NCBI GenBank assembly: GCA_002772695.1 | Contig: PFDI01000003.1 | Span: forward strand, 11,914-75,913 | DNA from: Candidatus Pacebacteria bacterium CG10_big_fil_rev_8_21_14_0_10_44_54 | GTDB lineage: Bacteria; Patescibacteriota; Microgenomatia; UBA1400; PJMF01 | DNA: 64,000 nucleotides | Direction: 5' to 3' | Part shown: positions 4,359 through 60,521 of the stretch, piece after piece | Position numbering within the stretch: the first letter of the stretch is position 1 | Layout of the letters: the number at the start of each line of letters is the position of its first letter | Position numbers and translations under genes: made by a program | Notes under the pieces: model-generated | Told to the model about the DNA's origin: nothing | The model's input: only the letters and a program-made list of their open reading frames with translations | The model's database searches: none

Positions 4359-5987
4359 ATGAAACGTCATCTTTTTTTCAAGTATAAATTTTTTCAACAC
4401 TGGCTGTTATTTCTGGTGATTCCAATTTTTTTTCTTCTTTTGCTTCGCAACCCTTTTTCCAACCGCAACCTCATCGCAAACCTCGGACCATTCCCAGACG
4501 TATTTCATTACATCACGGGCGCGCAGTGTTTCCTCGATGGTCAAGGGTTCTCTCTTTGCAGGCATAGCGAGAAGATTGACACAAGTGTGCCGCCTCTGTA
4601 CTCGGCACTGCTTCTACCATTTCTTCTCATCAATAACGACCCCCGCATGTTTTACTTTCTCAACCTTATACTGGCAACTTCGAGCTTGTTTCTCATGTAT
4701 CTTATCCTAAAAAAAATAGTGGTTAGAAACACACTTATCTTTTTGGGACTAGTGCTCTATGTGACAAGCTACCTGACATACTGGTACCCGACACTGGCAA
4801 TGGCAGAAAACCTACTCCTGCCAATTGTTTTATCACTCTTCTTCCTGCTGCTATACAAACCAAACAAAGCAAGAGCGGCACTTTTTGGGGCACTGGCTGT
4901 TGGAACCTATGCAAGTAAGTACTCGGCAGCGCCGATTACGCTCGGGTTTTTAGCCTTGTATGTGTGGCATATTGTCGGTAGTAACAAAAAGGGGAGAATA
5001 AACCTCTTGAGTGTGCTAGCCATGTGCGCACTGCTCGCGATCAGTGTGACCCAAAGCAGAAGCATTGTCACCAAGGGTCTTGATTTTTTTCAAAATACTA
5101 TTATCGCGCAAGTTAACCAAAATATTCCTGATCCACAAGCAAGACCTGATGTATGGATTAGTGCAGAGTACTTCGGCAGAAACATTGTTTTGTACGCCAA
5201 AACACTTCTCGGTTATACCGTGCTGATCCTTTGGCATCGAGATAGTTTTCTTTTACAACCGCTCTCGATTCTTGGTTTGCTGGGTATTGCTTTGGGAATA
5301 GTCAGAAAAAGTCGGTATCGTTTTTTCTTCTCGTCAATAGTAATAATTTTGACTTTGCAGATCGTCACACTCTCGTTTTTTTATTCATTTGAGAGTCGGT
5401 ATGTCTTGTATCTTCTGCCACTACAAATTGTCGGAGTAGTTTTTGCAGTACGGTTGTTGGTAGAAGTAGTGGCAAAATACTTCCCACGCATTCCAAGTTC
5501 TATTCTTTCTGCCAGTGTAGTGCTGCTTATTTTGGGTCTATATGCACTCAGTTCGACACAGCGCCTCCGACACCAGGTTGTACTCAACCTAAAGTATAGT
5601 GAGTCACCCTGGTGGTATTTGTCAGTGCAAGAACTGAATGTATTTTTTTCTGAAAAGGGTGAGGAAATCCCATTTGTTATCACGATTGTTCCGACCTATT
5701 TTGTTGACTACTACACAAATGCAAACTACGAGATTCTTCCCCTATCAAACCAACAAAGCTTCGAAAATGACCTGTATATGCTGAGCAAGCCAGAGAGCTT
5801 GGAGTTGGAAAATTGGTTCGAAATACTCTTGAGAGAAAATAAAAAATTGTTCGTGATGAACTATGGTCTTTCAGCAGAGGCTGGCTATCAATATGCGTTT
5901 GACCATCTCGAAGAGCTATACAAGGTAACAAAGCTTACCGAAGGTTGCTACAATACGTGCAATATCTACTCGCTCGAACTCAGGTAG
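4359..5987 (+). CDS. polytopic membrane protein, GT-C-like (PMT/ArnT-like) putative glycosyltransferase; paralogous to the middle and C-terminal blocks of the adjacent 6001-9141 product
   Basis: More than 10 predicted TM helices. The N-terminal loop PDVFHYITGAQCFLDGQGF resembles the DE..Y..A motif of GT-C PMT/ArnT enzymes. The C-terminal block LFVMNYGL...CYNTCNIYSL aligns with LFLSDYGL...CYDQCALLRV of the 6001 product. The ORF-track start at 4305 overlaps the divergent gene, so an internal Met at 4359 is preferred. Confidence 0.5.
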   Translation: MKRHLFFKYKFFQHWLLFLVIPIFFLLLLRNPFSNRNLIANLGPFPDVFHYITGAQCFLDGQGFSLCRHSEKIDTSVPPLYSALLLPFLLINNDPRMFYFLNLILATSSLFLMYLILKKIVVRNTLIFLGLVLYVTSYLTYWYPTLAMAENLLLPIVLSLFFLLLYKPNKARAALFGALAVGTYASKYSAAPITLGFLALYVWHIVGSNKKGRINLLSVLAMCALLAISVTQSRSIVTKGLDFFQNTIIAQVNQNIPDPQARPDVWISAEYFGRNIVLYAKTLLGYTVLILWHRDSFLLQPLSILGLLGIALGIVRKSRYRFFFSSIVIILTLQIVTLSFFYSFESRYVLYLLPLQIVGVVFAVRLLVEVVAKYFPRIPSSILSASVVLLILGLYALSSTQRLRHQVVLNLKYSESPWWYLSVQELNVFFSEKGEEIPFVITIVPTYFVDYYTNANYEILPLSNQQSFENDLYMLSKPESLELENWFEILLRENKKLFVMNYGLSAEAGYQYAFDHLEELYKVTKLTEGCYNTCNIYSLELR

Positions 5988-6000
5988 CAACCAAGCAATA

Positions 6001-9000
6001 ATGAAATCTACACCAAAGCTGCTTTTTTTTGTCTCTCTTTTCCTCCTTGCCTTCATCCCTTTGTACCCCAAAATCCCGCTGTTTGACATTCTGCCTGGTT
6101 ACATAGTTCGCGTCAGAGTAGAAGATATCCTGATGGTGATCGCAAGTGGCTTGTGGTTGTGGCACGCACTCAAAAACAAAACAAAGTGGCAAAGCGGCTA
6201 TCTTGGCATTATCGGACTCTATGCTGCTGTGGGAGTTTTTTCTATTGCCCTGGGCATTTTTCTACTCCAGACTATTCCCTTTGAAGTATTGCACATTGGC
6301 AAAAGTGCACTGCATTACTTTCGCTACCTTGAGTACTTCTCGCTCTTTTTTATAGCATTTTCTGGCATTCGCACCAAAAAACAAGCAACAAAGGCTGTGT
6401 TTGTACTCGCCGCTACTACATTTCTTATAATCATCTACGGTATTGGTCAAAAATACTTGCATTTTCCGCTGTACTCCACCATGAATAGAGAGTACAGCAA
6501 AGGCCAAGCCTTTTATCTTGAGGAGGGAGGCAAAATCAGCGCTACTTTTGGTGGGCATTATGACCTAGCCGCCTACCTCGTAATTATCTTACCGCTCCTT
6601 TTTTCTTTTTCGCTACAGTATCTAAAGAAATCAAAAGGCAAACTAGTGCTATTTGTCTGGCTCCAGACTATACATCTTGGTGGTGCTTGGCTCCTGTTAG
6701 AAACCGCCTCGAAAGCAGCTCTTATCGCCTACATCTTTGCTCTAGCGATCGTAATAGCGCTATACCTGAAAATGATTGCCAACAAACGACTTCGCACCCT
6801 GCTTTCTTCTGCAGCTTTACTTACATCAGCAGCAATTTTTTTTGCATTTCTTAGTCTTTTTGGTTCTCAAACCAAGATTCGATTTAGCAATCTCTACACC
6901 GCTTTGGTTAGCGACCAACAAAACCAAGACCCCAACGACCTAGTTGGAAACGGCTATGAATGGAAAACCTATACCCAGACATCTCCCGATGGTGAAGTCG
7001 TCACTACTAGAAAATTAGAAAAAAGTACCTGGTCACCAAATGCGCTGCGTTATGGCATTTCAATGGGAATTCGACTAGACACTCTCTGGCCACAGGCGCT
7101 CAAAGGACTCAGCAATAATCCGCTGTTTGGTAGTGGTTACGGTACACTATCCAAACTAGAGAACACACAATTTGTCGAGGCCGATAGTACCGATAACAAT
7201 TATCTCAGAACACTAGGTGAAACCGGATTACTTGGTTTTATCACCTTTTATGGCTTTGTTTTACTTGCCATGCGTCTTGTCTGGAATCAGCTAGAAAGAC
7301 ACAAAGGCATAACCCAAGCACTAAGTATTGGCTATCTTGGCGCAAGTCTCGGACTCCTAGTCAATGCTCTGTATATCGATGTTTTTGCTGCCTCCAAAGT
7401 CGCCTTTGTCTTTTGGGGAATAACTGGCTTTGTCCTGCGACTTGTTGCAAAGGAGCAGGGGAGTGATGCACTCAAAGCTATTCTCATGCACCTTGGCAAA
7501 CACAAAACGTTGTACGCCGCAGTTCTCTTGGCATTTTTCTTATTACAACAGAATCCTCTGGCGAATCACTCCAATCTACTCGCTTTTCATACTTCGACTC
7601 CTGCCTTCGAAAACTTTGTGGCTGCGCGCTGCTTCAGGCAGTCGTACTCATTTGCTCTTTGTCGCAATTCTGGCCTAATAACTGGCGAGCATTTTTCTTT
7701 CTACAGCATGTTGTTGCTGCCATTTTTGTGGTTGAGCAAGAATCCAGCAGTCTTTTATTACCTCAATCTCTCATTGGTTTTGACCACTCTCTTGCTGATG
7801 TACAAAAAACTAGGCATCAAGTCATTACTCTCACTACTACTCTTGGTAGTACTAGCCTATGAATACAACTTCACCGGCCAACCACTCGAAGACTCGCAGT
7901 TACTGCGACTAATGATTCTAGCCCCTGCCGCCATTTTGCTCTTACAAAAATTTATTCTTGCGGGAAAACATGCGCGCGTTGCAAAAGTTGTTCTGTATGG
8001 GGCACTCATGCTCTCTCCAGTCCTCTCTGCAAACTCAGGACAACGATTTCTAGAAAGTTTCCGCAATTCAGTTCAGGTGGTCAAACGAGATGCAGTTTTG
8101 CAAGCTAATTCCAGGCTTACTGCCGATGACTTTCTCATTACTGTACTTTCACCATACTATATTGATTTATTTAGCGACAAACCCTACCAAGTATTGCCAC
8201 TCTCACCGGCTCAGACCTACATGGATACACCAGAAAGAGTCTGGGGAGCTTATGACTTTTCCAATATGTATACGCTCTACGAGCGTCTGCTTGCCCAGGG
8301 CAAACAGTTATTTTTGTCAGATTATGGCTTGAATACCAATAAAGCTTTTTTCGAAGACTATGCTGCGCTGAGGCAGAACTTTGATGTTCGCTACGCCAAT
8401 CTAGATTGTTATGACCAGTGCGCGCTTTTGCGTGTCAACAAGTTGACCGAAAAAATCTCACCGCTACCTAGCTCAATTACAACAAAAAAACTTGAACCGA
8501 GTCTGCTCTCGAGTGAATACTCATTTGCCGTTATCTCAAATCGCTATGACAAAACAAACACTCAAACAGAGGTGGAGTATCTGGGCAAACTTGCAAACCA
8601 AAATGACGAATCATTTGCTTTTATGATTCTCACTGGAGATATTGTAAATAGCAAAGATTCTAGTGCTATTCAAACTGTAAACACGCTCTTTGCCAACCAA
8701 GCATCCTTTCCTGTACTCTACAGTCCGGGGAACTACGATCTCTTGCCAAGCAAGCCATATAATATAGCCAGCGAGCGATTCTATTCTGATCGAGATTATT
8801 TCATCCTACTGGATATAGGTCGCGACTCGGTGGCGACAAAACAGCAGCAATTATTTGTCTACAACGCATTGCTTGAGCTCGAGCAGTTGCCAAATATCCA
8901 AAATTTATTTATCATCTCGCATGACCTGAATTGGCAAGATCGTGATAATCCAAACAACTTCATTTTTGACCTTGAAGAAAAACTTGCTGCATTTCCAGAA

Positions 9001-9141
9001 CTAAAATCATACATTTTAACGGCGGATCATGCGCAAGCGGATACAAAAGAGAGTAGAAGTAAGTTTAATGGGAATAGTAAATATTATGCAAACACGCAAT
9101 CCGTCATTCGCGTAACCAAAAATGGTGAAATACTATTTTAG
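6001..9141 (+). CDS. 1046-aa multidomain membrane protein: N-terminal Wzy_C (O-antigen ligase/O-oligosaccharyltransferase-like) domain + GT-C-like paralogous segment + C-terminal degenerate calcineurin-like metallophosphoesterase-like domain
   Basis: Residues 1-480 are collinear with the 17769-19391 product (FIPLYPKIPLFDILPGYIVRVRVEDI, STMNREYSKG, IRLDTLWPQA, STDNNYLRTLGETGLLGF, a WaaL/Wzy_C HNxYLxxLxExG-type motif). Residues from about 530 are homologous to the N- and C-terminal blocks of the 4359-5987 product. The C-terminus carries MILTGDIVN...SPGNYDL...ISHD, which resembles MPE motifs II/III with His replaced by Tyr. Confidence 0.7.
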   Translation: MKSTPKLLFFVSLFLLAFIPLYPKIPLFDILPGYIVRVRVEDILMVIASGLWLWHALKNKTKWQSGYLGIIGLYAAVGVFSIALGIFLLQTIPFEVLHIGKSALHYFRYLEYFSLFFIAFSGIRTKKQATKAVFVLAATTFLIIIYGIGQKYLHFPLYSTMNREYSKGQAFYLEEGGKISATFGGHYDLAAYLVIILPLLFSFSLQYLKKSKGKLVLFVWLQTIHLGGAWLLLETASKAALIAYIFALAIVIALYLKMIANKRLRTLLSSAALLTSAAIFFAFLSLFGSQTKIRFSNLYTALVSDQQNQDPNDLVGNGYEWKTYTQTSPDGEVVTTRKLEKSTWSPNALRYGISMGIRLDTLWPQALKGLSNNPLFGSGYGTLSKLENTQFVEADSTDNNYLRTLGETGLLGFITFYGFVLLAMRLVWNQLERHKGITQALSIGYLGASLGLLVNALYIDVFAASKVAFVFWGITGFVLRLVAKEQGSDALKAILMHLGKHKTLYAAVLLAFFLLQQNPLANHSNLLAFHTSTPAFENFVAARCFRQSYSFALCRNSGLITGEHFSFYSMLLLPFLWLSKNPAVFYYLNLSLVLTTLLLMYKKLGIKSLLSLLLLVVLAYEYNFTGQPLEDSQLLRLMILAPAAILLLQKFILAGKHARVAKVVLYGALMLSPVLSANSGQRFLESFRNSVQVVKRDAVLQANSRLTADDFLITVLSPYYIDLFSDKPYQVLPLSPAQTYMDTPERVWGAYDFSNMYTLYERLLAQGKQLFLSDYGLNTNKAFFEDYAALRQNFDVRYANLDCYDQCALLRVNKLTEKISPLPSSITTKKLEPSLLSSEYSFAVISNRYDKTNTQTEVEYLGKLANQNDESFAFMILTGDIVNSKDSSAIQTVNTLFANQASFPVLYSPGNYDLLPSKPYNIASERFYSDRDYFILLDIGRDSVATKQQQLFVYNALLELEQLPNIQNLFIISHDLNWQDRDNPNNFIFDLEEKLAAFPELKSYILTADHAQADTKESRSKFNGNSKYYANTQSVIRVTKNGEILF

Positions 9142-9146: not shown

Positions 9147-10115
9147 TTAGTTCGAAAATGAGTCTCGCACTCTCCGCAACCCCTCGGCAAACGACACTTT
9201 TGGCGACCAATTGAGCAGCGCTCTAGCTTTTGTTATGTCTGGCTTTCGTCGAGTCGGATCATCCCCAGGTAAATCTTTAAACAAGAGTTCTAAACCTGGT
9301 TTTTCAAATGCGTTCTTGACGAGTTCTGCCGTTTGGATCGCTGTATGTTCTTCATTGGGATTGCCCAAATTGATTGTTTCTCCAGCTAAGTTTTGTAGTG
9401 TTCCCATGAGTAAAATCCCCTCGACTAGATCAGAAACATAACAGAATGAGCGAGTTTGCGAGCCGTCACCGTAAACAGTAAGAGGATGGTCAGAACGTAC
9501 TTGTGCGATGAAGTTGGGGATAATACGACCATCCGCCAAGTCCATTCGCGGACCGTAGGTATTAAAAATACGTACGATACGAACATCCATACCAAAGTCT
9601 CGTGTATGGACTCCGCAGATTGTTTCGCCCAAACGTTTGGCTTCGTCATAGCAAGAGCGCACGCCATTTGGATTGACATTACCCCAATAGCTTTCTGACT
9701 GTGGGTGCTCTGTAGGATCGCCATACACCTCGGAAGTACTGGCAAAAATAAATCTAGCTTGCGACGCTCTGGTCTTGAGATACTGCAAGAGATAATGGGT
9801 ACCGATCGAGTTGACCAAATAGGTTTCTACAGGATGCGCCTGATACCTGGGAGGGCTCGCAGGCGAAGCGAGGTGATAGACTACATCTGGCTCCAACAAC
9901 TTGGGAAGATAATTAGCAGCAGGCTGAGAAACATCTGCTCTAATAAAATGAAAATCGCTATTACTTTCAAGATGGTCTAAATTTTTGGCTTGACCTGTGA
10001 TAAAGTTATCTATGCCATAAACCGAATAACCTTGCTTTAGTAGCGCATCACACAAATGCGAGCCGACAAATCCTGCGACTCCGGTTATTACTGCTGTTTG
10101 GTTGCTACGGTTCAT
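9147..10115 (-). CDS. UDP-glucuronate decarboxylase (UDP-xylose synthase)-like NAD-dependent epimerase/dehydratase
   Basis: VITGVAGFVGSHLCDAL (GxxGxxG), YDEAKR (YxxxK) and RIFNTYGPRM, which is characteristic of UXS/ArnA-type decarboxylases. Confidence 0.85.
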   Translation of the reverse strand: MNRSNQTAVITGVAGFVGSHLCDALLKQGYSVYGIDNFITGQAKNLDHLESNSDFHFIRADVSQPAANYLPKLLEPDVVYHLASPASPPRYQAHPVETYLVNSIGTHYLLQYLKTRASQARFIFASTSEVYGDPTEHPQSESYWGNVNPNGVRSCYDEAKRLGETICGVHTRDFGMDVRIVRIFNTYGPRMDLADGRIIPNFIAQVRSDHPLTVYGDGSQTRSFCYVSDLVEGILLMGTLQNLAGETINLGNPNEEHTAIQTAELVKNAFEKPGLELLFKDLPGDDPTRRKPDITKARALLNWSPKVSFAEGLRRVRDSFSN

Positions 10116-10149: not shown

Positions 10150-10377
10150 ATGCCCGTAGTTGAAATTAAGAATGCATCTTTTGAGCTACTTATGGAAATA
10201 TACACCCAAGAGCTTCGGCGCCTACTTAGTTCAGAAGGAAATAACATCGACCCAGATTACATTGCCTCCATGCTAGAACGTTCACGATTGGAACAACATC
10301 AAAAAATGTTACTGCATCTAGAACTGGAAAAAAAATTACCGGAATTGCGTAAAGCAGCAAATCAAAATAGCACTTGA
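10150..10377 (+). CDS. hypothetical small helical protein (75 aa)
   Basis: ORF only. Its stop overlaps the start of the next gene. Confidence 0.3.
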   Translation: MPVVEIKNASFELLMEIYTQELRRLLSSEGNNIDPDYIASMLERSRLEQHQKMLLHLELEKKLPELRKAANQNST

Positions 10378-11876
10378 ACTCTACACTCTCTATAATGGAG
10401 TTCGTGCAATCATTTCTTAATCGTTCACGCTTGTTATTGCTACTAATTTTGGCGCTTGCGATACTTCTCCGCCTCCCACACCTCTCTGGCTCATTCTGGC
10501 TCGACGAAGCCGCCCAAGCACTCGAAAGCACACGGCCACTGTCGCAACAACTCGATATAGTGGCAGACTTTCAACCACCGCTGCTACACCTCATTACGCA
10601 TGTGGCTAGTTATGCATCGCACACCGAGTGGTGGCTAAGAACCGCCGGCGCACTAGTTCCTGGCTTGCTGACGATTGCGATCTTGTACTTATTTCTAGAG
10701 CGTGCCGCAAACAAAAAAACGGCGACGATTGCTGCAGCTCTACTTGCTACCTCCTCACTACACATCTATTTTTCTCAAGAATTGCGTCCGTACTCACTGC
10801 CTACCTTGTTTGCTGTTGCATCATGGTGGGCACTGTACGAGCAGCGTTGGCGCTGGTTTACCACCCTCACAATAGCAGGCCTCTACAGCTCATACCTTTA
10901 CCCATTTTTACTGATAGCACAGACAATTTGGTTACTACTAAATACAAAAAAATATAAGCAACTTGTCGTCTCCCTAGTAATCAGCACAGCCTGTTTTATT
11001 CCATGGCTGCCAACCTTTTTTGCACAGTTGCAAGCAGGGCAACTCCTTCGCAATGAACTGCCTGGTTGGGAAAGTACTGTCAGCATTTCACAAGAAAAAG
11101 CACTACAGTTGGTGATGGGGAAGTTTATTTTCGGCCTGAGCGATCTTTCTTTTTCTCTACCATATCTTGCTACTGGCTCGTTTGTCGTACTAAGCTTGAT
11201 TAGTTTGCTATTGTTTTCCTGGCAAAAAAAGGTAAAAAGGCAGCAAAAAGTACTCATGTTACTGCTATTCTGGGCAGGAGCACCACTTGCATTTGCTTGG
11301 CTGGCATCTTGGTTTGTGCCCGTAGTTGAGCCCAAGCGACTCTTACTCTCGCTCGCTGGATTTTATGGTCTAGCCAGCTATCTATTTGTACTTTCACTGC
11401 CGCAAAAAAATGCGATAGCAAAAAAACTCGCTACACTGCTTATTGCTATGCTATTTATTATAAATATCTCGAGTACTATCAGATATTTTATCGACAAATC
11501 ATTCCAACGAGAAGACTGGCGTGGAATCATTCGCAAAATAGAACAAACTTATCCGGCACAAAACACGATTGCTGTCTTTATTTTCCCCGAAGCTTTTGCT
11601 CCTTGGCTTTGGTATGCCTCTCCAGATATTACTACCATCAGTACAAAAGCAATCTATGTTGACAACACCACGCCGCTTCGTGATTTGCTTGAGCCAACAC
11701 TTGACTACGACTACATACTTATGTTTGACTACTTACAAGATCTCACCGACCCCAATCGATTGGTAGCAGCTGAGCTACAAAAGTTTGGTTTTGAGGAAAC
11801 TGGCTCGTTTTCTGCGCCAAACGTAGGTTTTGCCAGAATTTTTAGTAAACAAAATACCGCTGTAGATCAAGGATAG
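10374..11876 (+). CDS. GT-C family glycosyltransferase, PMT_2/ArnT-like (GT39/GT83-like) polytopic membrane protein
   Basis: LLLLILALAILLRLPHLSGSFWLDEAAQALES (the DE..A loop after TM1 is typical of PMT_2/ArnT), followed by multiple TM helices and a soluble C-terminal domain. Confidence 0.7.
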   Translation: MNSTLSIMEFVQSFLNRSRLLLLLILALAILLRLPHLSGSFWLDEAAQALESTRPLSQQLDIVADFQPPLLHLITHVASYASHTEWWLRTAGALVPGLLTIAILYLFLERAANKKTATIAAALLATSSLHIYFSQELRPYSLPTLFAVASWWALYEQRWRWFTTLTIAGLYSSYLYPFLLIAQTIWLLLNTKKYKQLVVSLVISTACFIPWLPTFFAQLQAGQLLRNELPGWESTVSISQEKALQLVMGKFIFGLSDLSFSLPYLATGSFVVLSLISLLLFSWQKKVKRQQKVLMLLLFWAGAPLAFAWLASWFVPVVEPKRLLLSLAGFYGLASYLFVLSLPQKNAIAKKLATLLIAMLFIINISSTIRYFIDKSFQREDWRGIIRKIEQTYPAQNTIAVFIFPEAFAPWLWYASPDITTISTKAIYVDNTTPLRDLLEPTLDYDYILMFDYLQDLTDPNRLVAAELQKFGFEETGSFSAPNVGFARIFSKQNTAVDQG

Positions 11877-13042: not shown

Positions 13043-14209
13043 ATGGCTACCTACCGCATAGCAATAGACGGCAATGAGGCTAATGTAGTCGATCGTGTTG
13101 GCAGCAACACTTATGCGTATGAACTACTGGTCGCGCTCGAGCAACAACTTGCCAAACAAGCAAATTGGCAGATCACAGTTCTGCTCACACAGCATCCATG
13201 CAGCGACATGCCGCTAGAGCGTCCTGGCTGGAAGTATGTTGTAGTTCGACCAAAACAATTCTGGACACAATGGGCGCTGCCTCGTTTTTTGTATCAGCAC
13301 CGAAGTAATTTTGATTTGTTTTTTACACCCGGCCATTACGCTCCCCGACACGCTCCGTTACCCTATATTTCTGCGGTACTAGACCTTGCCTTTCTTTCGC
13401 ACCCCGATTCTTTCACACTGCGCGACAGACTGCAGCTCTCCTACTGGACTAAGTACAGCGTTAAAAACGCCAAAAAAATCATAACTATTAGCCATGCAAG
13501 TAAAACAGAAATTGCTGCTACATATAAAATTCCTCCAGAAAACATAGCTGTTTGTTATCCAGCTATTGGCATAATCCAAAAACCAACTTTGCAAGAAGCG
13601 GCCAAAGATCTCAAAAAATTTGCTATTACAAAGCCATTCTTTATTTCTCTTGGAACAATTCAGCCGAGAAAAAACCTCATTAAACTAATTGAAGCTTTCG
13701 AAAGCTACTCACGAAAACAACAAGGTCTAGCCAAACAAACAAAGGCAAAACAACATAACTTAGTACTAGCGGGCAAGGAAGGCTGGCTGGCAGCACCAAT
13801 TCTCAAGCGTATTGCAGCATCTCCATTCAAAGAATTGATTATAGTGACTGGTTTCATCACAACAAAAGAAAAATGGTCGCTACTTCGCTCGGCTACTGCT
13901 GTTGTCATTGTCGGACTGAAAGAAGGTTTTGGCATACCTGCACTCGAGGCACTCGAAGCAAACACAATTCCTGTTGTCGCCAATGCGGCAAGTTTGCCAG
14001 AAGTAGTCGGCGAGTCAGGAATTTTGGTAGATCCACACAACACTCTAGATATAGCCGATGGTTTGTGGAAGGCTGCAACGCTCAAAGCGCGGGAAAAAGC
14101 TGTGCTCAAAAAAAAGGGAAGAGAACAAAAAACTCTCTTCAGTTGGAAAAACACCGCTCAACATGTACAGGATCTCTGGCAAAGTGTGCTCACAAAGAAA
14201 CAAGTGTGA
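13043..14209 (+). CDS. glycosyltransferase family 4
   Basis: KEGFGIPALEALEANTIPVVANAASLPEVVGESGILVDP. Confidence 0.8.
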   Translation: MATYRIAIDGNEANVVDRVGSNTYAYELLVALEQQLAKQANWQITVLLTQHPCSDMPLERPGWKYVVVRPKQFWTQWALPRFLYQHRSNFDLFFTPGHYAPRHAPLPYISAVLDLAFLSHPDSFTLRDRLQLSYWTKYSVKNAKKIITISHASKTEIAATYKIPPENIAVCYPAIGIIQKPTLQEAAKDLKKFAITKPFFISLGTIQPRKNLIKLIEAFESYSRKQQGLAKQTKAKQHNLVLAGKEGWLAAPILKRIAASPFKELIIVTGFITTKEKWSLLRSATAVVIVGLKEGFGIPALEALEANTIPVVANAASLPEVVGESGILVDPHNTLDIADGLWKAATLKAREKAVLKKKGREQKTLFSWKNTAQHVQDLWQSVLTKKQV

Positions 14210-14691
14210 TAACAATTCTCGCTATTGACCCAGGATATGACCGTCTCGGTTGGGCAGTTGTATCGGTCGACGACCGCAAGCTTTTACTGCGAGCATACAA
14301 CTGTATTGTGACTGATCGAGCCAAAAACTTGGCCGAAAGAATTCAACAAATCACTACCGAGCTTGAAGAAATAATTGCGAGTCAACAGCCGCAAGAACTT
14401 GCCATCGAAACACTCATTTTTGCTCGTAACACAACTACTGCACTCAAAGTAAGTGAGGTGCGTGGAGCAATTATCGCCACAGCAAATACCCATAACTTAG
14501 TAATTCACCAGTACAATCCTGGTACTATTAAGCTAGCTATCGCAGGGCATGGCAAAGCTGATAAGCGAGCAGTTGATAAAATGTTGCGCCTGCTCATACC
14601 AGATATAGGCAAAGTACTGCACGATGATACAATGGATGCAATCGCAATCGCAGTAACTCACGCGCTTGCAGTTCACCATCTGCAACTCTGA
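14206..14691 (+). CDS. ruvC: crossover junction endodeoxyribonuclease RuvC
   Basis: ITILAIDPGYDRLGWAVV...ETLIFARNTTTALKVSEVRGAII...DAIAIAVTHA. The GTG start is embedded in the upstream stop (GTGA). The track ORF 13873-14691 is an upstream extension of this frame that overlaps the preceding GT4 gene. Confidence 0.85.
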   Translation: MITILAIDPGYDRLGWAVVSVDDRKLLLRAYNCIVTDRAKNLAERIQQITTELEEIIASQQPQELAIETLIFARNTTTALKVSEVRGAIIATANTHNLVIHQYNPGTIKLAIAGHGKADKRAVDKMLRLLIPDIGKVLHDDTMDAIAIAVTHALAVHHLQL

Positions 14692-14693
14692 TT

Positions 14694-15269
14694 ATGATCG
14701 CATTTCTTACTGGCACACTCCATCAAGTCGGGACTCCACTCATCCTTCTGGTTGGCGGTGTCGGCTATAGTGTACGAGTAGCAGAAAAACATCAATCTCT
14801 CTGGAGCGTTGGTCAAAATTTATCACTGTGGATCCATACCCACGTTGCCGAGACAAAGTTTGAGTTATTCGGTTTTCCAGACCAAAAAGAGAAGGAACTA
14901 TTTTTACTTTTACTCCAAGTGTCTGGAGTAGGCCCAAGCACTGCCTTGCAGTTGGGGGCGATCGGAAGTGAAAAAATCTCACAGGCGGTTCGCGACGGGG
15001 CTGTGCGCACATTTACTCAAGTTCCTCGGGTGGGAAAGAAATTAGCACAAAAAATAATCATAGAGCTTGGCAGCAAGCTTGGGGCAATAGAAGAACTACA
15101 ACTAGGTACACTCGATACTGATCGCGCACTACTGCTCGAGGCTCTGCTTTCACTTGGATATGAAGAACAACGTGTATACGACGTAGTCCGCAAAACAAAT
15201 ATGGACAACCAAACGCTGGAGCAAGCACTCAAACAAACCATGCAAACAATTGGAACAACGAAAACATGA
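14694..15269 (+). CDS. ruvA: Holliday junction DNA helicase RuvA
   Basis: MIAFLTGTL...LLVGGVGYSV...ELFLLLLQVSGVGPSTAL. Confidence 0.85.
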   Translation: MIAFLTGTLHQVGTPLILLVGGVGYSVRVAEKHQSLWSVGQNLSLWIHTHVAETKFELFGFPDQKEKELFLLLLQVSGVGPSTALQLGAIGSEKISQAVRDGAVRTFTQVPRVGKKLAQKIIIELGSKLGAIEELQLGTLDTDRALLLEALLSLGYEEQRVYDVVRKTNMDNQTLEQALKQTMQTIGTTKT

Positions 15270-16258
15270 CACAAGCTCCTTCCCAATTACAAACACCAGA
15301 AGAAGTAGAGCTTTTTTCTAACCTGAGAGCACAAACATGGGCTGAATTTTATGGTCAAGACACGGTCAAAAAATCTCTTACCATTGCGATAGAAGCTGCG
15401 CGCAATCGAGCCGAACCACTTGATCACTTACTGCTATATGGGCCCCCAGGTCTTGGCAAAACGACACTTTGCCACTTGATTGCCAGTGAACTCAACGTAC
15501 AAACCAAAATTACTTCTGGCACGGCCTTGACAAAGGTCGGGGATTTGGCTGCCATTATTACCAATCTTAACCCAGGCGACATCTTGTTTATTGATGAAAT
15601 TCACCGCTTGCCAAAAGCTGTAGAAGAAACTCTGTACCCTGCCATGGAGGATTACGCACTAGATGTAGTCATTGGCAAAGGACCAACAGCCCGATCTATC
15701 CGACTTGATTTACCCAAGTTTACACTTGTTGGTGCTACCACAAAATTTGGCTTGCTATCTGGTCCATTTCGAGATCGGTTTGGCATTATTCATCGTCTTT
15801 CTTACTATAAATCACTCGCATTACAAACAATCTTGATGCGTTCGGCAGAAAAACTCCATGTTAGACTGCGTGAATCTGGCGCTATTGCGATCGCACAACG
15901 CTCTAGAGGCACCCCTCGAATTGCTCTCAAATTACTGAAACGAGTGCGAGATTATCTCGAAGTACACAACCAAACCGAAATTTCTGGTGAGCTTGTACAA
16001 AAAGCACTTGATCTTTTTGAAATTGATCAGTTGGGTCTTGATGATAGCGACCGACGTCTTATTGAGCTCATCATTGGCAAACACCAAGGTGGTCCGGTAG
16101 GACTAAGTACGCTTGCGGCGGCGTTAAATGAAGATACTGTCACAATCGAGGAAGTGATTGAACCATACCTCATGCAGATTGGTTTTCTCAAACGAACCAC
16201 ACAGGGCAGAATGACGACAGAAGCTGCCAAAAAGCACCTCAACAACTCAAATGCTTAG
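15266..16258 (+). CDS. ruvB: Holliday junction DNA helicase RuvB
   Basis: LLYGPPGLGKTTL (Walker A), ILFIDEIHRL (Walker B) and a C-terminal winged-helix domain. Confidence 0.95.
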   Translation: MTQAPSQLQTPEEVELFSNLRAQTWAEFYGQDTVKKSLTIAIEAARNRAEPLDHLLLYGPPGLGKTTLCHLIASELNVQTKITSGTALTKVGDLAAIITNLNPGDILFIDEIHRLPKAVEETLYPAMEDYALDVVIGKGPTARSIRLDLPKFTLVGATTKFGLLSGPFRDRFGIIHRLSYYKSLALQTILMRSAEKLHVRLRESGAIAIAQRSRGTPRIALKLLKRVRDYLEVHNQTEISGELVQKALDLFEIDQLGLDDSDRRLIELIIGKHQGGPVGLSTLAAALNEDTVTIEEVIEPYLMQIGFLKRTTQGRMTTEAAKKHLNNSNA

Positions 16259-17768: not shown

Positions 17769-19391
17769 ATGCCTACCTCCAAAACAATCCTTGGCTGGAT
17801 CGATCACAATCTCTTACTTGTTCTCAGTGGATTCTTGCTCGCGTTTATCCCACTCTATCCCAAGTTACCACTGTTTGACTTGATTCCAGGTTATCTCGTG
17901 CGAGTTCGAGTAGAAGATATTTTTATAGCACTTACTATACTTTTTTGGCTCATCCAGTTAGCCAGAAAAAAAGTAACCTGGAAAATTCCCATAGCAAAAT
18001 TGCTTGGTCTGTATTTGCTGGCAGGATTTGCTTCGTTACTCAGTGCAGTGTTTATTACCAAAACCATTCCTTTTGAGGTTCTGCATCTAGGCAAATCTGT
18101 CTTGCATTTACTAAGATATCTCGAATACTTCGCACTTTTCTTTATCATTTTTTCAAGTATAAAAACAAAGCATCACTTGCGCATTTTACTGCTGACCGGC
18201 TTCATAACGCTCTTGGCTGTGGCCGCCTATGGTGTCGGACAACGCTACTTCTACTGGCCAGTCTACTCGACCATGAATAGAGAGTTTAGCAAAGGACTCA
18301 GACTCTACCTCACCCCACATGCACGAGTACAATCAACTTTTGGCGGTCATTATGATCTTGGAGGCTACCTCGTCATCACCCTACCATTTGTCCTAGCCGC
18401 CCTATATAGCTTCACAAAGAAAAAAGAAAAAATTGCGCTCTTTGTTTTATTTTACTTTGGTATCTGGTTGATTACTGTCTCTGCCTCACGAGCCTCATTT
18501 GGTTCACTCTTGCTTGCTTTACTCATAGTTGTACTACTTTTTGCGATCCAGAAAAAAACCTGGCTAAAGAGGACAACCTGGTTTTTCCGCCAGACAAGCC
18601 TACTCACACTTGGAACGTCGGTCGTGCTCGTGTTCTTTGGTCAAGATATGTACGAGAGATTACTACAAATTTTGGATGGTTATCCTCTGGCTCACACAGC
18701 GTATGAGCAAGTAGATACAAAGAGAAAAGAATTTCTGCATTTTCTACCTCAGTTTCAAGTCGAAAAACCAGAAAACGCGCTTTCAACAGAAGAAGCAGCG
18801 GTTATGGTAGCTTCGGATACACGACCAACACCCCAAAGACCAAGTGACGTTTATGTTAATGTTCCCGACCATAAATTAGTCGCTACGGTGTCGGCAGAGG
18901 GGATCGAGTCTATGATACTAGTAGAGGTTGAGCGAACATACTCACAAAATGCGCTCGAGCGAGGACTTTCGCTCGCTATTCGTCTTGATACACTTTGGCC
19001 ACAAGCAATTGCCGGGTTTCAAAAAAACCCACTACTTGGTACGGGATACGCCACGCTAACCAAGGAGAGTGTTCAGCAATTTACCGAAGCCGAAAGCACT
19101 GATAACAACTATTTACGAACACTCGGCGAAACAGGCCTTGCTGGTTTTCTATTCTTTTACGGTAGCATTATCACCGCACTCTGGCTCTCATTGCGCACGC
19201 TACGACGTGTAGACCAACAACTCGCCCCAATCGAAAAAATTATCCTTGTTGGTTTTATTGCTGGCTCAATTGGCTTGCTACTCAATGCTACCTATATTGA
19301 TGTATTTGTAGCTTCCAAAATAGCCTACATATTTTGGGCAAATACGGGTATGGCAATGGCAGTTTACCTCTGGTATCATAATGAAAAATAA
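17769..19391 (+). CDS. Wzy_C family membrane protein (O-antigen ligase / O-oligosaccharyltransferase-like), paralog of the N-terminal domain of the 6001-9141 product
   Basis: FIPLYPKLPLFDLIPGYLVRVRVEDI, STMNREFSKG, IRLDTLWPQAIAGFQKNPLLGTGYATL and STDNNYLRTLGETGLAGF. Confidence 0.75.
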   Translation: MPTSKTILGWIDHNLLLVLSGFLLAFIPLYPKLPLFDLIPGYLVRVRVEDIFIALTILFWLIQLARKKVTWKIPIAKLLGLYLLAGFASLLSAVFITKTIPFEVLHLGKSVLHLLRYLEYFALFFIIFSSIKTKHHLRILLLTGFITLLAVAAYGVGQRYFYWPVYSTMNREFSKGLRLYLTPHARVQSTFGGHYDLGGYLVITLPFVLAALYSFTKKKEKIALFVLFYFGIWLITVSASRASFGSLLLALLIVVLLFAIQKKTWLKRTTWFFRQTSLLTLGTSVVLVFFGQDMYERLLQILDGYPLAHTAYEQVDTKRKEFLHFLPQFQVEKPENALSTEEAAVMVASDTRPTPQRPSDVYVNVPDHKLVATVSAEGIESMILVEVERTYSQNALERGLSLAIRLDTLWPQAIAGFQKNPLLGTGYATLTKESVQQFTEAESTDNNYLRTLGETGLAGFLFFYGSIITALWLSLRTLRRVDQQLAPIEKIILVGFIAGSIGLLLNATYIDVFVASKIAYIFWANTGMAMAVYLWYHNEK

Positions 19392-20826
19392 CCTTCCCTT
19401 CCTCCTGATAATCAGCACCGCTTTTTTGCTCAGATTGCCACACATCACTAGTCCCGTGCTTGATTGGCACAGCTTCAGACAAGCAGATACGGCCTCAGTG
19501 ACGTACGAGTATGTGAGAAATGGCGTCGATCTCTTACATCCAAAGTTTCATGATTTTTCCAACATTGCTTCTGGCAAAGACAATCTTGCTGGCTATCGTA
19601 TGGTCGAGTTTCCTTGGATTAATGGCTTGTTAGCCAGCATACTGCGGTTTGCTCCGAATCTTTCACTCGTGGTACTCAGCAGAGGTTTTACCATCGCGCT
19701 TTCACTGGTCACGCTCAGCAGTTTGTATTTTTTTGTCAAACTATTTTCAGACAAAAAAACTGCGCTGCTTGCCGCAATGACTTTCGCAGTTTTGCCATAT
19801 GCGGTTTTTTATAGTCGAGTTATCTTGCCAGACCCTGTTATGATAGCCCTGGCAACTGCATCGGTGACTCTTTTTGCCTACTGGCTGCACTCGAGACACT
19901 GGCGTTACTATGCTGCTTCTTTCTTGCTACTCGCTCTTGCCGCACTTACGAAGCCGTTTGTTCTGTTTTTGGCACCTGTGTACGTATCTTTGTTATTCGT
20001 TCAGTTTCTAAAAAAAAAGCTAGTATGGCAGCAAGTTTTTTGGACTATGATGCTACCAAGCAGCTTGCTGCCGCTGTGGTGGTGGCGAGATTGGATTTTG
20101 CAATTTCCCTCAGGTATTCCTGCCTCAGACTGGCTCTACAATGGTCCTATTAATGAAGTGCCTCCGCGTCTGCGACCAGTCTGGTTTCGCTGGCTCTGGT
20201 ACGAGCGATTATCTAAGTTAATCCTAGGGTATACCGGTACTGTGCTGCTGATACCACTTCTCCTGCGTTGGAAAAAAATCTCTACGCCAGAATTGTTCGT
20301 GTATGGCTCTTGGTGGTTGAGTGTCCTGCTTTTTTTTGTCGTTATAGCCCGGGGTAACATCCAGCACGATTACTATCAAGTTTTTACCCTACCAATAATT
20401 TGCATCTCTGTCGCAAAAGGAGTCAGGCTGCTATTTGCGTGGCTACAACACAAACTACACAAAAAAATTGCCATTACACTGACTGTCGCTCTGTATCTTT
20501 CAATGCTATTGCTCTCCCTACAACAAGTTGTCGGCTACTACCAAATCAATCACTGGGAGTATTATCGAGTTGGACAACGAGCACAAGCAGTGTTGCCAGA
20601 AGAAGCTATTGTTGTGGCACCTGCTTTTGGCGACACCTCATTCCTCTTTCAAACACGCCGCCGCGGCTGGCCAATTGGCTTCGAAATTGAAAAAAAAGTT
20701 GCAGCTGGCGCCCAATACTACATCACGACGACTTATGATGATGAAGCAAAAACGCTAGAATCAACTTATGAGTTAATCGAAAAAACACCAGAGTATCTTA
20801 TTTTAAATTTACAGAATACCTTATGA
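19381..20826 (+). CDS. GT-C family glycosyltransferase, PMT_2/ArnT-like polytopic membrane protein
   Basis: LRLPHITSPVLDWHSFRQADTASVTYEY (PMT-like loop) and about 11 TM helices. Confidence 0.7.
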   Translation: MKNNLPFLLIISTAFLLRLPHITSPVLDWHSFRQADTASVTYEYVRNGVDLLHPKFHDFSNIASGKDNLAGYRMVEFPWINGLLASILRFAPNLSLVVLSRGFTIALSLVTLSSLYFFVKLFSDKKTALLAAMTFAVLPYAVFYSRVILPDPVMIALATASVTLFAYWLHSRHWRYYAASFLLLALAALTKPFVLFLAPVYVSLLFVQFLKKKLVWQQVFWTMMLPSSLLPLWWWRDWILQFPSGIPASDWLYNGPINEVPPRLRPVWFRWLWYERLSKLILGYTGTVLLIPLLLRWKKISTPELFVYGSWWLSVLLFFVVIARGNIQHDYYQVFTLPIICISVAKGVRLLFAWLQHKLHKKIAITLTVALYLSMLLLSLQQVVGYYQINHWEYYRVGQRAQAVLPEEAIVVAPAFGDTSFLFQTRRRGWPIGFEIEKKVAAGAQYYITTTYDDEAKTLESTYELIEKTPEYLILNLQNTL

Positions 20827-26739: not shown

Positions 26740-27360
26740 ATGACGTATTTAGCTCAAAAGCGCCTTCTTGATCTTGCCGTTGCTCTCGGATTAAGTATGC
26801 TTTTTTTACCCGTCTGGTTGGTAGTGCCAGTTTTAATTTTTCTTGATTCAGGCAAACCTATTTTTTTTGTCCATAAACGAGTTGGCCTAAACGGTCGCGA
26901 ATTTTATCTCTACAAATTTCGCTCAATGATAATTGGTGCTGACGACATGCTGCACAAACACGACAAAAAATTACTCAGAGAATTTAAAAGCAACGACTGG
27001 AAAATTCCCAATGATCCCCGCATAACAAAGTTGGGAAAAATACTTCGCTCACTCACCATCGATGAGTTTCCACAGTTGCTCAATGTGTTGCGAGGCGAAA
27101 TGTCTATGGTTGGTCCTCGCGCTTATGTACGTAAAGAGCTCGATGAACAAAGCGAGCGATATCCCGAAACGAAATCATATATTACAAAAATTCTCAGTGT
27201 AAAGCCAGGTATTTCTGGACCCTGGCAAACCAGTGGTCGCAACGAGATCCCTTTTGCCCAACGAGCCAAGATGGATGCGCAGTATGCAAGCAATCCTTCT
27301 ATCTGGCGAGACATTCTTATTTTACTCAAGACACCTGGAGCTATGATTTCAAAGTGGTGA
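26740..27360 (+). CDS. small monotopic phosphoglycosyl transferase (bacterial sugar transferase family, PglC/WbaP C-terminal-like); initiating enzyme
   Basis: FFVHKRVGLNGREFYLYKFRSM...DEFPQLLNVLRGEMSMVGPRA. At 206 aa it has a single N-terminal TM segment. Confidence 0.85.
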   Translation: MTYLAQKRLLDLAVALGLSMLFLPVWLVVPVLIFLDSGKPIFFVHKRVGLNGREFYLYKFRSMIIGADDMLHKHDKKLLREFKSNDWKIPNDPRITKLGKILRSLTIDEFPQLLNVLRGEMSMVGPRAYVRKELDEQSERYPETKSYITKILSVKPGISGPWQTSGRNEIPFAQRAKMDAQYASNPSIWRDILILLKTPGAMISKW

Positions 27361-35653: not shown

Positions 35654-36871
35654 ATGCTAGCGCAAGTAGCCTACCTATTAAAACGCCCCCTTCACTTTGT
35701 GAAAACCGGCTTGTTGCAAGGCTTACCAGCACAAATTCAGACAAAATTTCCTGAAAGGAAACTACGAGTCATCGCTATCACCGGCACTGATGGTAAAACA
35801 AGCTCCTCGACTCTTTTACAGCATGTCCTGCTTTTTGCAAAACGCAAATCAGGACTCATCAGCACAATTGGCTTTTTTCTCGGAAAAAATCCAAGTGACT
35901 CGGGATTGCATGTTACCGCACCTCAGCCAAAAGACCTGTATAAATTCATGCAGGAGCTGGTCAAAAAAAAATATGAGTTTTTGGTTCTAGAGACAACTTC
36001 GCACGGTTTGTATCAATATCGTACTTGGGGAATCCGACCAGAGATTGCAGCAATTACTAACATTGCTCGCGAACACCTTGATTATCACCGCACCTACAAA
36101 CAGTATGTTGCGGCAAAGTCTCTGTTGCTCAAAAATGCAAAAACAATTGTACTCAATGCAGATGATTTTTCCTTTCCACTTTTGAGCAAACAAACAAAAG
36201 AGAAAAAAGTTCTCACATATAGCTCAAGTGATCGCCTGCCTGTTGGCGTTACAAAAGCAATTCGCGCTCGATTTCCAGAGCAGTATAACCAACAAAACGC
36301 ACGAATGGTCTTTACCATATGTCAAATACTTGGGATTTCTATTCAAGATTTTATTCAATCCCTCTCGTCGTTTCAGCATGCTCCAGGCAGAATGCAGTGG
36401 CTTCAGCTCAACAAAAAGTTTGCTGTTATCGTAGATTTTGCACACACCCCACAAGGTGTCGCAGCCGTATTAACAGCTTTAAAAAAACTTCAGACCACCC
36501 AAAATAAGCTGGGGAAATTACTTGTGGTTCTTGGTTCAGCTGGCTTGCGAGACAGGGAGAAGCGTCCAGAAATGGGAAAAGTAGCAACCGAACTTGCCGA
36601 CCTAGCTATTTTTACAGCTGAAGATCCACGTACCGAAGATGTCTGGTCAATCATCAGGCAAATGAAAGAACAACTTAGTGCCAACCACAATAAAATTGTC
36701 TCAATTGCAGACAGAAAGAGAGCTATTGCCTTTGCTTTGGCAGCTGCAAAAGCAAACGATATTGTTGCAATTCTTGGCAAAGGTCACGAGCAGAGCATGT
36801 GTTATGGCACCAAGGAAATTCCTTGGGATGATGCTCGTGTAGCGACAGAACTGGCCAAAAAACAATTATGA
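35654..36871 (+). CDS. murE: UDP-N-acetylmuramoyl-tripeptide ligase MurE-like with shortened N-terminal domain
   Basis: VIAITGTDGKTSSS (P-loop), DFAHTP, and C-terminal AGLRDREKRPEMGKVATELADLAIFTAEDPR (the MurE DNPR region). The ATG at 35654 lies 6 nt after TATAAT (leaderless); an alternative TTG start is at 35627. Confidence 0.7.
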   Translation: MLAQVAYLLKRPLHFVKTGLLQGLPAQIQTKFPERKLRVIAITGTDGKTSSSTLLQHVLLFAKRKSGLISTIGFFLGKNPSDSGLHVTAPQPKDLYKFMQELVKKKYEFLVLETTSHGLYQYRTWGIRPEIAAITNIAREHLDYHRTYKQYVAAKSLLLKNAKTIVLNADDFSFPLLSKQTKEKKVLTYSSSDRLPVGVTKAIRARFPEQYNQQNARMVFTICQILGISIQDFIQSLSSFQHAPGRMQWLQLNKKFAVIVDFAHTPQGVAAVLTALKKLQTTQNKLGKLLVVLGSAGLRDREKRPEMGKVATELADLAIFTAEDPRTEDVWSIIRQMKEQLSANHNKIVSIADRKRAIAFALAAAKANDIVAILGKGHEQSMCYGTKEIPWDDARVATELAKKQL

Positions 36872-60186: not shown

Positions 60187-60220
60187 TGGCTTACAGTATA
60201 ACTGATTTTTCTTTGTAATG

Positions 60221-60293
60221 AGCCGGGAAGGGGATTCGAACCCCTGACCTACGGTTTACGATACCGCCGCTCTACCAACTGAGCTATCCCGGC
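60221..60293 (-). tRNA. tRNA-Thr (anticodon CGU), no encoded CCA
   Basis: Cloverleaf folded by hand: acceptor GCCGGGA/TCCCGGC, D-arm GCTC..GAGC, anticodon stem GCGGT/ACCGT with loop AUCGUAA, T-arm AGGGG-TTCGAAT-CCCCT. Confidence 0.85.
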
Positions 60294-60298
60294 GAGGG

Positions 60299-60369
60299 AG
60301 CGGGATACGGGAGTCGAACCCGCTTCTCCACCTTGGGAAGGTGGCATACTACCGCTGTACTAATCCCGC
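60299..60369 (-). tRNA. tRNA-Gly (anticodon CCC), no encoded CCA
   Basis: Acceptor GCGGGAT/ATCCCGC, anticodon stem CCACC/GGTGG with loop UUCCCAA, T-arm GCGGG-TTCGACT-CCCGT. Confidence 0.85.
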
Positions 60370-60379
60370 AGGCAAAAGT

Positions 60380-60388
60380 ATTGTAGCA
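60380..60388 (-). promoter_or_regulatory. extended -10 TGcTACAAT for the tRNA-Gly/tRNA-Thr transcript (minus strand), 10 nt upstream of the mature tRNA-Gly 5' end
   Basis: The reverse complement of 60380-60388 is TGCTACAAT. Confidence 0.35.
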
Positions 60389-60521
60389 AACAGCGAACTT
60401 CTACATAGATCGCGTCAGTTCAAAATACTTTATATGTTATTTTAGATTGCGATGGGTTGATTTTTTGTACGAAAACAAATTGGAATCAAAAAAAAGCTAG
60501 AGTGACTTAAATCTTTACTTG

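Follow-up and report, generated by a model that had tools for sequence, protein, structure and literature searches.

Does a 1046-residue membrane protein that joins parts of three enzyme families in one chain carry out three reactions, two, or only one? The question is raised by a gene in a 64,000-nucleotide window (the whole stretch of DNA analysed here; positions 11,914 to 75,913 of contig PFDI01000003.1) from Candidatus Pacebacteria bacterium CG10_big_fil_rev_8_21_14_0_10_44_54, a member of the Patescibacteria, or candidate phyla radiation (CPR). These ultra-small bacteria live in attachment to other cells, which puts the envelope at the centre of their biology, and their surface glycans are essentially uncharacterised. 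The initial annotation of the window had described the gene product as a fusion of a Wzy_C protein, a paralogue of the product of the gene just upstream, and a degenerate metallophosphoesterase-like domain. We found that the protein is a three-part fusion of a WaaL/Wzy-type transferase, a cut-down GT-C glycosyltransferase and a phosphoesterase-fold domain. The reading that we favour, with moderate confidence, is that of one active transferase of undecaprenyl diphosphate (Und-PP)-linked glycan that carries a non-catalytic extracytoplasmic arm.

One gene for a conserved three-part protein

The fusion gene starts 13 nt past the stop codon of the upstream gene (table 1). The identical protein is already public (NCN06389.1 and PIR60672.1) as 'O-antigen ligase family protein [Candidatus Pacebacteria bacterium]', and in the same metagenome-assembled genome (MAG) its neighbours are GW946_00915, the upstream gene, and GW946_00975, a short Wzy_C paralogue. 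An open reading frame (ORF) of this length could be the product of a missed stop, a frameshift or a chimeric assembly, and a few short database entries (P0176, P0177 and P0182) do span only the C-terminal part. These entries, however, look like fragments, as they lack a start methionine (P0176 and P0177) or start in the middle of a domain, and they gave no firm evidence of naturally split orthologues. More than 100 independent clusters of full-length homologues, 975-1270 aa long and covering 91-100% of the query, show that the fusion is not an artefact of assembly or gene calling, and the identical three-part architecture was present in at least 22 species-representative genomes. The confident structural model of the single chain (below) also speaks against an artefact, the chance of which we regard as negligible; nor can the similarities described below be put down to chance.

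Conservation was measured on an alignment of 117 fusion homologues, while residues of the phosphoesterase site were counted in 121 members, the BLAST check of the middle blocks used 120 homologues and the profile of the upstream family was built from 53. An AlphaFold2 model of the whole chain, built on the 117-homologue alignment, was confident throughout (mean predicted local distance difference test score 93.0, predicted template modelling score 0.89, no segment below 50). Such values over 1046 residues imply defined packing between domains, and the high template modelling score suggests that the modules would pack as one body. When the model was searched with Foldseek, it matched WaaL (E 3.9e-7), FtsW (1.9e-3) and rat purple acid phosphatase (4.4e-3, probability 1.00).

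The three parts are conserved to very different degrees. Positions conserved at 90% or above make up 24% of the Wzy part, 2.4% of the GT-C transmembrane (TM) remnant, 4.9% of the GT-C C-terminal domain and 0.9% of the phosphoesterase-fold domain. The Wzy domain is thus the only strongly conserved part of the fusion and, judged by this pattern, presumably the catalytic one.

A Wzy domain with an invariant aspartate in the WaaL-type motif

Pfam Wzy_C matched residues 229-416 of the fusion with 40.2 bits, above the gathering score of 31.7, and the domain has the 12-TM architecture of WaaL with a long external loop ahead of TM10. Residues 17-479 aligned with the product of the short paralogue over 512 columns at 40% identity (BLASTP, E 2e-109), and both proteins contain STDNNYLRTLGETG, which bears out the collinearity that had been proposed for residues 1-480. 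An N-terminal β-hairpin (PKIPLFD...GYxVRVRxED) is invariant in the Wzy part, together with residues that include R39, E41, D42, H98, R108, E111, R163, E164, K167, D188, D313, R358, D360, D398, N399, R403, E407, D460 and K466. In pairwise alignment all of the residues listed were also found in the short paralogue. For the invariant R163, R358 and R403 the predicted topology gives positions in external loops or at helix ends.

The WaaL-type motif closes the large external loop. In E. coli WaaL it reads H337-N-x9-G349-x-x-G352, that is H-[NSQ]-x9-G-x-x-[GTY], and in the fusion D398-N399-x9-G409-x-x-G412, with identical spacing and with all four residues invariant in the family. The substitution of Asp for the WaaL His noted earlier is therefore no peculiarity of this protein. 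At the sequence level, searches of PDB chains with the full-length family profile and with the N-terminal 500 residues returned no WaaL or other meaningful match, and an hhalign comparison of the N-terminal family profile with E. coli WaaL as a single sequence gave no significant score (E 0.28), so that of this comparison only the motif spacing was used. Because there is no sequence match to a WaaL of the PDB, the relationship to WaaL rests on Pfam and on the fold.

The histidine of this motif is H313 in the C. metallidurans enzyme, where R191 and R265 of external loops hold the phosphates of Und-PP. In the clan that unites these enzymes, the residue aligned with the WaaL His is an essential Asp in SEDS proteins and Asp or Glu in the inverting Wzy polymerases (Meitil et al. 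2024, PMC10920833), and this is the state of D398. The clan pattern includes conserved Arg as well, and the fusion agrees with it. Asp being usual in inverting polymerases and SEDS proteins, there is nothing anomalous about it here; it speaks for an enzyme of polymerase type and against the name 'O-antigen ligase'. That database name is probably misleading, the catalytic signature being polymerase/SEDS-like. The protein could still be a true WaaL-type ligase that joins finished O-antigen to an acceptor resembling lipid A-core. We consider this highly improbable, since the ligase-motif His that marks WaaL sensu stricto (CAZy GT121) is Asp in every member, neither the profile nor the single-sequence search found a PDB WaaL, and no NCBIfam model matched. 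The Wzy_C Pfam family, moreover, spans polymerases and O-oligosaccharyltransferases as well, and the window holds peptidoglycan (dcw) genes and no genes for lipid A or core. Patescibacteria are regarded as having neither an outer membrane nor lipopolysaccharide (LPS), which also counts against a WaaL ligase.

A reduced GT-C module related to the upstream gene

The middle of the fusion is specifically related to the upstream-type GT-C protein, as judged from sequence comparison. BLASTP aligned fusion residues 500-669 with upstream residues 13-179 (35% identity, E 6e-17) and fusion residues 711-807 with upstream residues 439-534 (26% identity, E 2e-10), and both upstream-like blocks were recovered in 118 of the 120 fusion homologues. 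These are the two blocks, at about 7596-7800 and 8200-8440, whose homology to the upstream protein had been proposed; both of the motif pairs cited for them are present. Formal comparison of the 500-820 segment with the upstream product was likewise significant, with an hhalign probability of 100% (E 1.8e-82) for the fusion against the upstream family over 324 aligned columns that span upstream residues 1-542. Roughly 190 residues of the upstream protein (about 160-350) have no counterpart in the fusion.

Pfam and NCBIfam GT-C models matched neither the fusion nor the upstream protein, and an NCBIfam scan gave no model of any kind for either; a few relatives weakly match PMT_2 and Glyco_transf_22. 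As an alternative source of the middle module we considered the PMT_2-type GT-C genes of the cluster; this was rejected, as the upstream protein showed no BLAST similarity to the product of the second of them (19381-20826).

To compare the sites, we mapped the 25 invariant residues of the stand-alone GT-C family onto the fusion family. An hmmalign map of the middle modules was misregistered, with the Cys columns unaligned, and was discarded in favour of the hhalign pairwise map. Eight upstream invariants (D47, Y51, D94, R96, W142, P144, E150 and N151) fell on variable columns of the fusion family, while K187, Y279, G285, F341, R347 and Y348 are deleted from it. The only ones kept are Y81, Y99, N102, D450, P461 and two Cys; D450, P461, C530 and C534 of the upstream protein correspond to D722, P733, C803 and C807 of the fusion. 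An Asp in the first external loop is the usual catalytic position of GT-C enzymes, and D47 holds this position in the upstream protein. It is invariant in the 53 upstream sequences; the aligned fusion column reads D in 18, Q in 17, A in 16, S in 16 and E in 15 of 117 sequences. In the protein studied here the residue is Pro534, and the first external loop does not offer the acidic residue expected of GT-C_A.

The amount of GT-C sequence retained varies across the family from 225 to 424 of the 541 positions of the hidden Markov model, and the middle module looks as if an ancestral GT-C domain, once complete, had been reduced step by step. The proposal that two adjacent gene types were fused therefore stands as a statement of ancestry and fails as one of function, the GT-C part being truncated and stripped of its invariants. 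A bifunctional protein, in which the middle module would still be a polyprenyl-phosphate-sugar-dependent glycosyltransferase and decorate the glycan handled by the Wzy domain, would fit the homology to a genuine GT-C family, the WadA precedent (PMC10920833) and the distant members that keep more of the GT-C core, up to the maximum just given. It would also fit the way in which Wzy_C and GT-C genes are paired in the cluster: the upstream gene stands next to the fusion, and the short paralogue overlaps the following PMT_2 gene by 11 nt, so that the pairing recurs. The overlap suggests translational coupling. Set against the lost invariants, a second glycosyltransferase activity nevertheless appears very unlikely.

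A degenerate phosphoesterase-fold domain at the C-terminus

The C-terminal domain is firmly established as a true member of the metallophosphoesterase fold. The four strings that had been recognised as calcineurin-like boxes are all present: ISNRYD (845-850), LTGDIVN (877-883), SPGNYDL (908-914) and ISHD (972-975). Pfam Metallophos (PF00149) matched residues 868-980 (E 0.0024), its 18.8 bits falling short of the gathering score (21.5), and just 4 of the 120 listed homologues have a precomputed PF00149 match. A profile of the domain and its stand-alone relatives matched GpdQ (E 0.014) with the GD and GNHD motifs aligned. The fold is the α/β sandwich of the superfamily, and the Foldseek match of the AlphaFold2 model to purple acid phosphatase identifies it as that of a phosphoesterase and not an unrelated one.

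The complete set of motifs I-V (DxH, GD, GNH[DE], H and GHxH) is absent from the fusion protein, in which the corresponding readings are S846-N847-x-Y849, G879-D880, G910-N911-Y912-D913, H974 and D1009-H1010. The initial annotation had the metal-binding His replaced by Tyr or Asn. This is right for the GNH motif, which has become GNY (Y912); H974, by contrast, is retained, as are D880 and N911, and N847 and Y849 are not unambiguously assignable, since even the closest relatives that look active have a non-canonical motif I (G-H-x-Y-G).

The site varies widely among the 121 members. At position 847 we counted 57 N, 32 H and 7 D, with F or Y at position 849; at position 912, 35 Y, 20 F and 8 H; and at position 974, 66 H, 18 Y and 13 N. 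Not one member combines His at 847, 912 and 974, and D880, N911 and H974 occur together in 56. By these counts the site does not appear to be kept by selection, which is the signature of a pseudoenzyme.

An exhaustive search with residues 816-1046 (phmmer) found just 79 proteins, made up of fusion members and stand-alone proteins of 300-400 aa. The latter (P0185-P0229) carry a signal anchor at the N-terminus and a TM segment at the C-terminus. Their motifs read G-H-x-Y-G (without Asp), GD, GNH[DE], H and GD, and they pass the Pfam Metallophos gathering score. They appear to be an uncharacterised subfamily of membrane-anchored metallophosphoesterases.

Several observations weigh against a wholly inert relic. 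This individual protein retains D880, N911, H974 and D1009-H1010 and thus may hold a single metal site. Within the C-terminal domain, G879-D880 (96% and 88%) and N911 (75%) rank with the most conserved positions, and their conservation exceeds what a purely structural relic needs. The whole C-terminal extension is kept by all 120 best homologues; a functionless relic would be expected to be lost from small CPR genomes, so the extension presumably does something specific. The domain might instead be a working but mechanistically altered phosphoesterase, for example mononuclear or with Tyr/Asn ligands, that would act on the carrier pyrophosphate. The initial annotation had allowed for an altered mechanism of this sort, and its suggestion of a part in release or recognition of the Und-PP-linked donor is speculative. 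It would recycle Und-PP to undecaprenyl phosphate (Und-P), or cleave an Und-PP-glycan or sugar-phosphate linkage, and so couple transfer to recycling. Such an enzyme would be in keeping with the secure fold, with the D880, N911, H974, D1009 and H1010 present in this protein, with GD and GN as the best-conserved motifs of the domain, with its predicted place on the membrane side where Und-PP is released and with UpsH/YpbG of B. subtilis, a precedent on Und-PP-linked polymers (PMC11898649). UpsH, however, requires two motif-V histidines and faces the cytoplasm. In addition, the three His never occur together in the 121 members, the His of GNH survives in 8 of them and the D880/N911/H974 set in fewer than half, the domain has the lowest share of conserved positions given above, and the Pfam score lies below the gathering threshold. 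We therefore consider an altered phosphoesterase unlikely.

Predicted topology and a proposed mechanism

Topology was predicted from hydropathy and positive-inside charge rules, read on the helices of the AlphaFold2 model. The N-terminus is predicted to be inside and the Wzy part to comprise 12 TM helices, with conserved predicted external loops at 22-39, 153-185, 304-399 and 456-464. After the linker helix, TM13 (residues 502-515) leads into an external loop (516-566) that carries the invariant C544 and C554, followed by about four more TM segments. This loop and residues ~694-1046 are predicted to lie outside the cell by the positive-inside pattern, and the two invariant Cys pairs, C544/C554 and C803/C807, are consistent with an extracytoplasmic placement. 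This would put the C-terminal domain of the GT-C part, like the phosphoesterase-fold domain, on the same side as the active-site loop of the Wzy domain.

We propose a single active transferase with a non-catalytic arm as follows. The homologies, the folds, the loss of signature residues and the conserved architecture and synteny are direct results; topology, catalytic roles, the inactivity of the arm and the substrate are inferred. The Wzy domain would be the sole catalyst and would move a glycan linked to Und-PP onto an acceptor hydroxyl on the outer side of the membrane. The acceptor would be activated by Asp398, a base placed where the large external loop ends, and invariant basic residues of the external loops, for which R163, R358 and R403 are candidates, would hold the diphosphate. 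With Asp as the base instead of the WaaL His, the chemistry would be closer to that of inverting Wzy polymerases and SEDS proteins than to that of O-antigen ligases. The long and short paralogues may divide polymerase and ligase roles between them, the short one presumably doing the other job. The C-terminal 560 residues would be evolutionary relics, first a reduced GT-C module (about five TM helices and an α/β domain) and then a degenerate phosphoesterase-fold domain. Together they could form a rigid extracytoplasmic arm, anchored by the helices of the GT-C remnant, which would bind or position the acceptor, the growing polymer or a partner protein without catalysis. The fusion would act in a conserved surface-glycan pathway of Wzx/Wzy type in Microgenomates-type Patescibacteria.

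The relic modules might instead form, together, a second site for the polyprenyl-diphosphate carrier, with the lipid groove of the GT-C part holding the lipid and the phosphoesterase pocket binding the pyrophosphate or hydrolysing it slowly. If so, the protein would be a self-contained machine that holds both an Und-PP-linked donor and an Und-PP-linked acceptor, which would put a pseudo-phosphoesterase to a new use and answer the two-lipid-substrate problem of Wzy polymerases in a new way. In the catalytic version the released Und-PP would be dephosphorylated on the spot, coupling assembly to recycling in minimal genomes. We rate a second carrier site as quite unlikely, and prefer the single transferase with its non-catalytic arm.

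Genomic context and distribution

The fusion gene lies in a glycan cluster (table 1). Pathway genes of the window include many GT2 and GT4 glycosyltransferases, nucleotide-sugar enzymes and three GT-C genes, and the cluster is followed by the dcw cell-wall cluster. With a phosphoglycosyltransferase, GT2/GT4 enzymes and a Wzx-like flippase, the context is compatible with a Wzx/Wzy pathway. The flippase lies about 26 kb from the glycan cluster, beyond the dcw genes; no other candidate flippase was seen in the window.

Table 1. Coordinates of the fusion gene, its modules and other features of the window. Residue numbers are those of the fusion protein.
Feature	Positions	Strand	Evidence or remarks
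Glycan cluster	~765 to 29377		GT2 and GT4 genes, hexapeptide acyltransferase, nucleotidyltransferase, others
Upstream gene, stand-alone 542-aa GT-C-fold glycosyltransferase (P0121, GW946_00915)	4359..5987	+	No Pfam family
Fusion gene	6001..9141	+	Single ORF, 1046 codons, ATG start; ORF list and translation
WaaL/Wzy-fold (GT-C_B) domain, 12 TM, residues 1-485	6001..7455	+	Strongly conserved, presumably catalytic
WaaL-type motif, residues 395-412, DSTDNNYLRTLGETGLLG	7183..7236	+	Ends large external loop 304-399
Linker helix, residues 486-501, amphipathic, Lys-rich, predicted cytoplasmic	7456..7503	+	Model secondary structure, hydropathy, positive-inside count
GT-C TM remnant, residues 502-693	7504..8079	+	TM1, first external loop with C544 and C554, ~4 more TM; BLASTP, hhalign
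Predicted extracytoplasmic α/β domain, residues 694-815	8080..8445	+	CxxxC, C803/C807 invariant; BLASTP, hhalign, topology prediction
Metallophosphoesterase-fold domain, residues 835-1046	8503..9138	+	Degenerate site, predicted extracytoplasmic
Epimerase/dehydratase	9147-10115	-	
PMT_2 GT-C gene, first	10374-11876		
Short Wzy_C paralogue, 540 aa	17769-19391	+	Same invariant residues; BLASTP, Pfam
PMT_2 GT-C gene, second	19381-20826		
Bac_transf phosphoglycosyltransferase	26740-27360		
DUF4012 protein, 658 aa	27401-29377		Directly after Bac_transf gene
Wzx-like MOP flippase	55412-56638		Polysacc_synt_3, E 1.6e-55

The short Wzy_C paralogue lies about 11.7 kb downstream of the fusion and belongs to a well-conserved family of its own, for which the search gave more than 1400 hits at 50-73% identity. 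Species-representative genomes contained at least 561 related loci, with long and short paralogues 11-14 kb apart on the same contigs (for example L016 with L045 and L014 with L076). Of 23 loci, 11 had a stand-alone GT-C gene no more than 6 kb from the long form, and in 7 the two were direct neighbours. A locus whose fusion (P0067) is 38% identical has the same gene order, namely stand-alone GT-C, fusion, epimerase on the minus strand, PMT_2, GT4, GT4, RuvC/A/B and hexapeptide transferase. In our window ruvC, ruvA and ruvB sit inside the glycan cluster (13873-16258), between the GT4 genes and the hexapeptide acyltransferase, and the same interleaving is seen in the genome with the 38%-identical fusion (L001, 16987-19200). 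Interleaved with ruvCAB, adjoining dcw and syntenic across Microgenomates-type lineages, the cluster appears to encode a core envelope pathway rather than to form an accessory island.

Source names of the relatives include Pacebacteria/Paceibacterota, Woesebacteria, Roizmanbacteria and Microgenomates, many MAG titles being generic. A short-paralogue homologue of 40% identity is recorded under 'candidate division TM6 bacterium GW2011_GWF2_28_16' (L081, CP011212.1, 511417-524967), and loci clearly of CPR type occur in dozens of TPA (third-party annotation) MAGs titled 'uncultured Pseudomonadales bacterium'. These records are mislabelled, or else the family extends beyond the Patescibacteria.

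Other features of the window were recorded in passing. In the first GT2 ORF (765-2132), Glycos_transf_2 covers residues 1-102 and related GT2 models match again at 281-353, so that some 180 residues are inserted into the GT-A domain. This ORF was called from TTG and its Pfam match begins at profile position 12, so its true start may be upstream. A CofD/YvcK-like gene (PF01933, E 1.1e-73; 36868-37848) stands between two Mur ligase genes of the dcw cluster, and three tRNA genes (Thr-CGT, Gly-CCC and Asp-GTC) are clustered at 60220-60594 on the minus strand.

Significance

The family was already in the databases under an automatic name, and each of its modules comes from a known superfamily. What is new is the combination of modules, the turning of two enzymes into relic appendages and the recognition of the upstream gene as a member of an unnamed GT-C family; that family, for which Pfam and NCBIfam hold no model, can now be assigned to a fold and given a candidate catalytic Asp. 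Our literature searches on O-antigen ligase or Wzy_C proteins of Patescibacteria/CPR, and on a ligase combined with a metallophosphoesterase, found no description of the architecture. The protein would be a natural example of a GT-C enzyme and a metallophosphoesterase converted into non-catalytic appendages of a third enzyme. Substrate handling and chain-length control by Wzy/WaaL-type enzymes are still poorly understood, and so clean an example of pseudoenzyme appendages offers a tractable target for the roles of accessory domains in them. The results should be useful for CPR envelope biology and for annotation; a new principle would follow only if the relic domains handle the carrier.

Comparison with known systems

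Among the enzymes that share the Wzy-type fold, WaaL (CAZy GT121; 7TPG and 7TPJ of C. metallidurans, and the E. coli enzyme) has His in the motif where the fusion has an invariant Asp. The fusion further differs from WaaL in its N-terminal β-hairpin, its 560 extra residues and a host lineage without known LPS. In this motif it is closer to the inverting Wzy polymerases and SEDS proteins, which share a clan with GT119 and GT121 (PMC10920833), but is not placed in any published polymerase family. No polymerase with an appended GT-C remnant and a phosphoesterase-fold domain was found in our literature searches. The nearest parallel in design is WadA of Brucella and Mesorhizobium, a bimodular O-antigen ligase in which GT121 is fused to GT25 (PMC10920833). 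WadA and the fusion alike join a WaaL-fold enzyme to a second glycosyltransferase module of the same pathway. The module appended in WadA, however, is globular, active and of GT-A type, whereas that of the fusion is a membrane GT-C remnant without the family invariants and is followed by a third domain. Compared with the GT-C_A enzymes (ArnT 5F15, PMT/Pmt4, ALG12/ALG9 and AglB/PglB), this remnant is down to about five TM helices and the C-terminal domain, and the Asp is missing from it.

The C-terminal domain differs from calcineurin-like enzymes (GpdQ 2DXL, purple acid phosphatases, Rv0805 and PhoD) in lacking the Asp and His of motif I and in having Tyr for the His of GNH. UpsH/YpbG of B. 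subtilis is a metallophosphoesterase that acts on Und-PP-linked polymers, is cytoplasmic and needs H202 and H204 (PMC11898649), whereas the phosphoesterase-fold domain of the fusion is predicted to be extracytoplasmic. Chains of the B subunits of DNA polymerases α and ε were among the structural matches of our model. These subunits were reportedly recognised by Aravind and Koonin in 1998 as inactivated phosphoesterase domains. Like the domain of the fusion, they would combine the metallophosphoesterase fold with lost metal ligands and be kept as a structural or interaction module. The process they serve is unrelated, and the likeness is one of kind only, that of a pseudoenzyme from the same superfamily.

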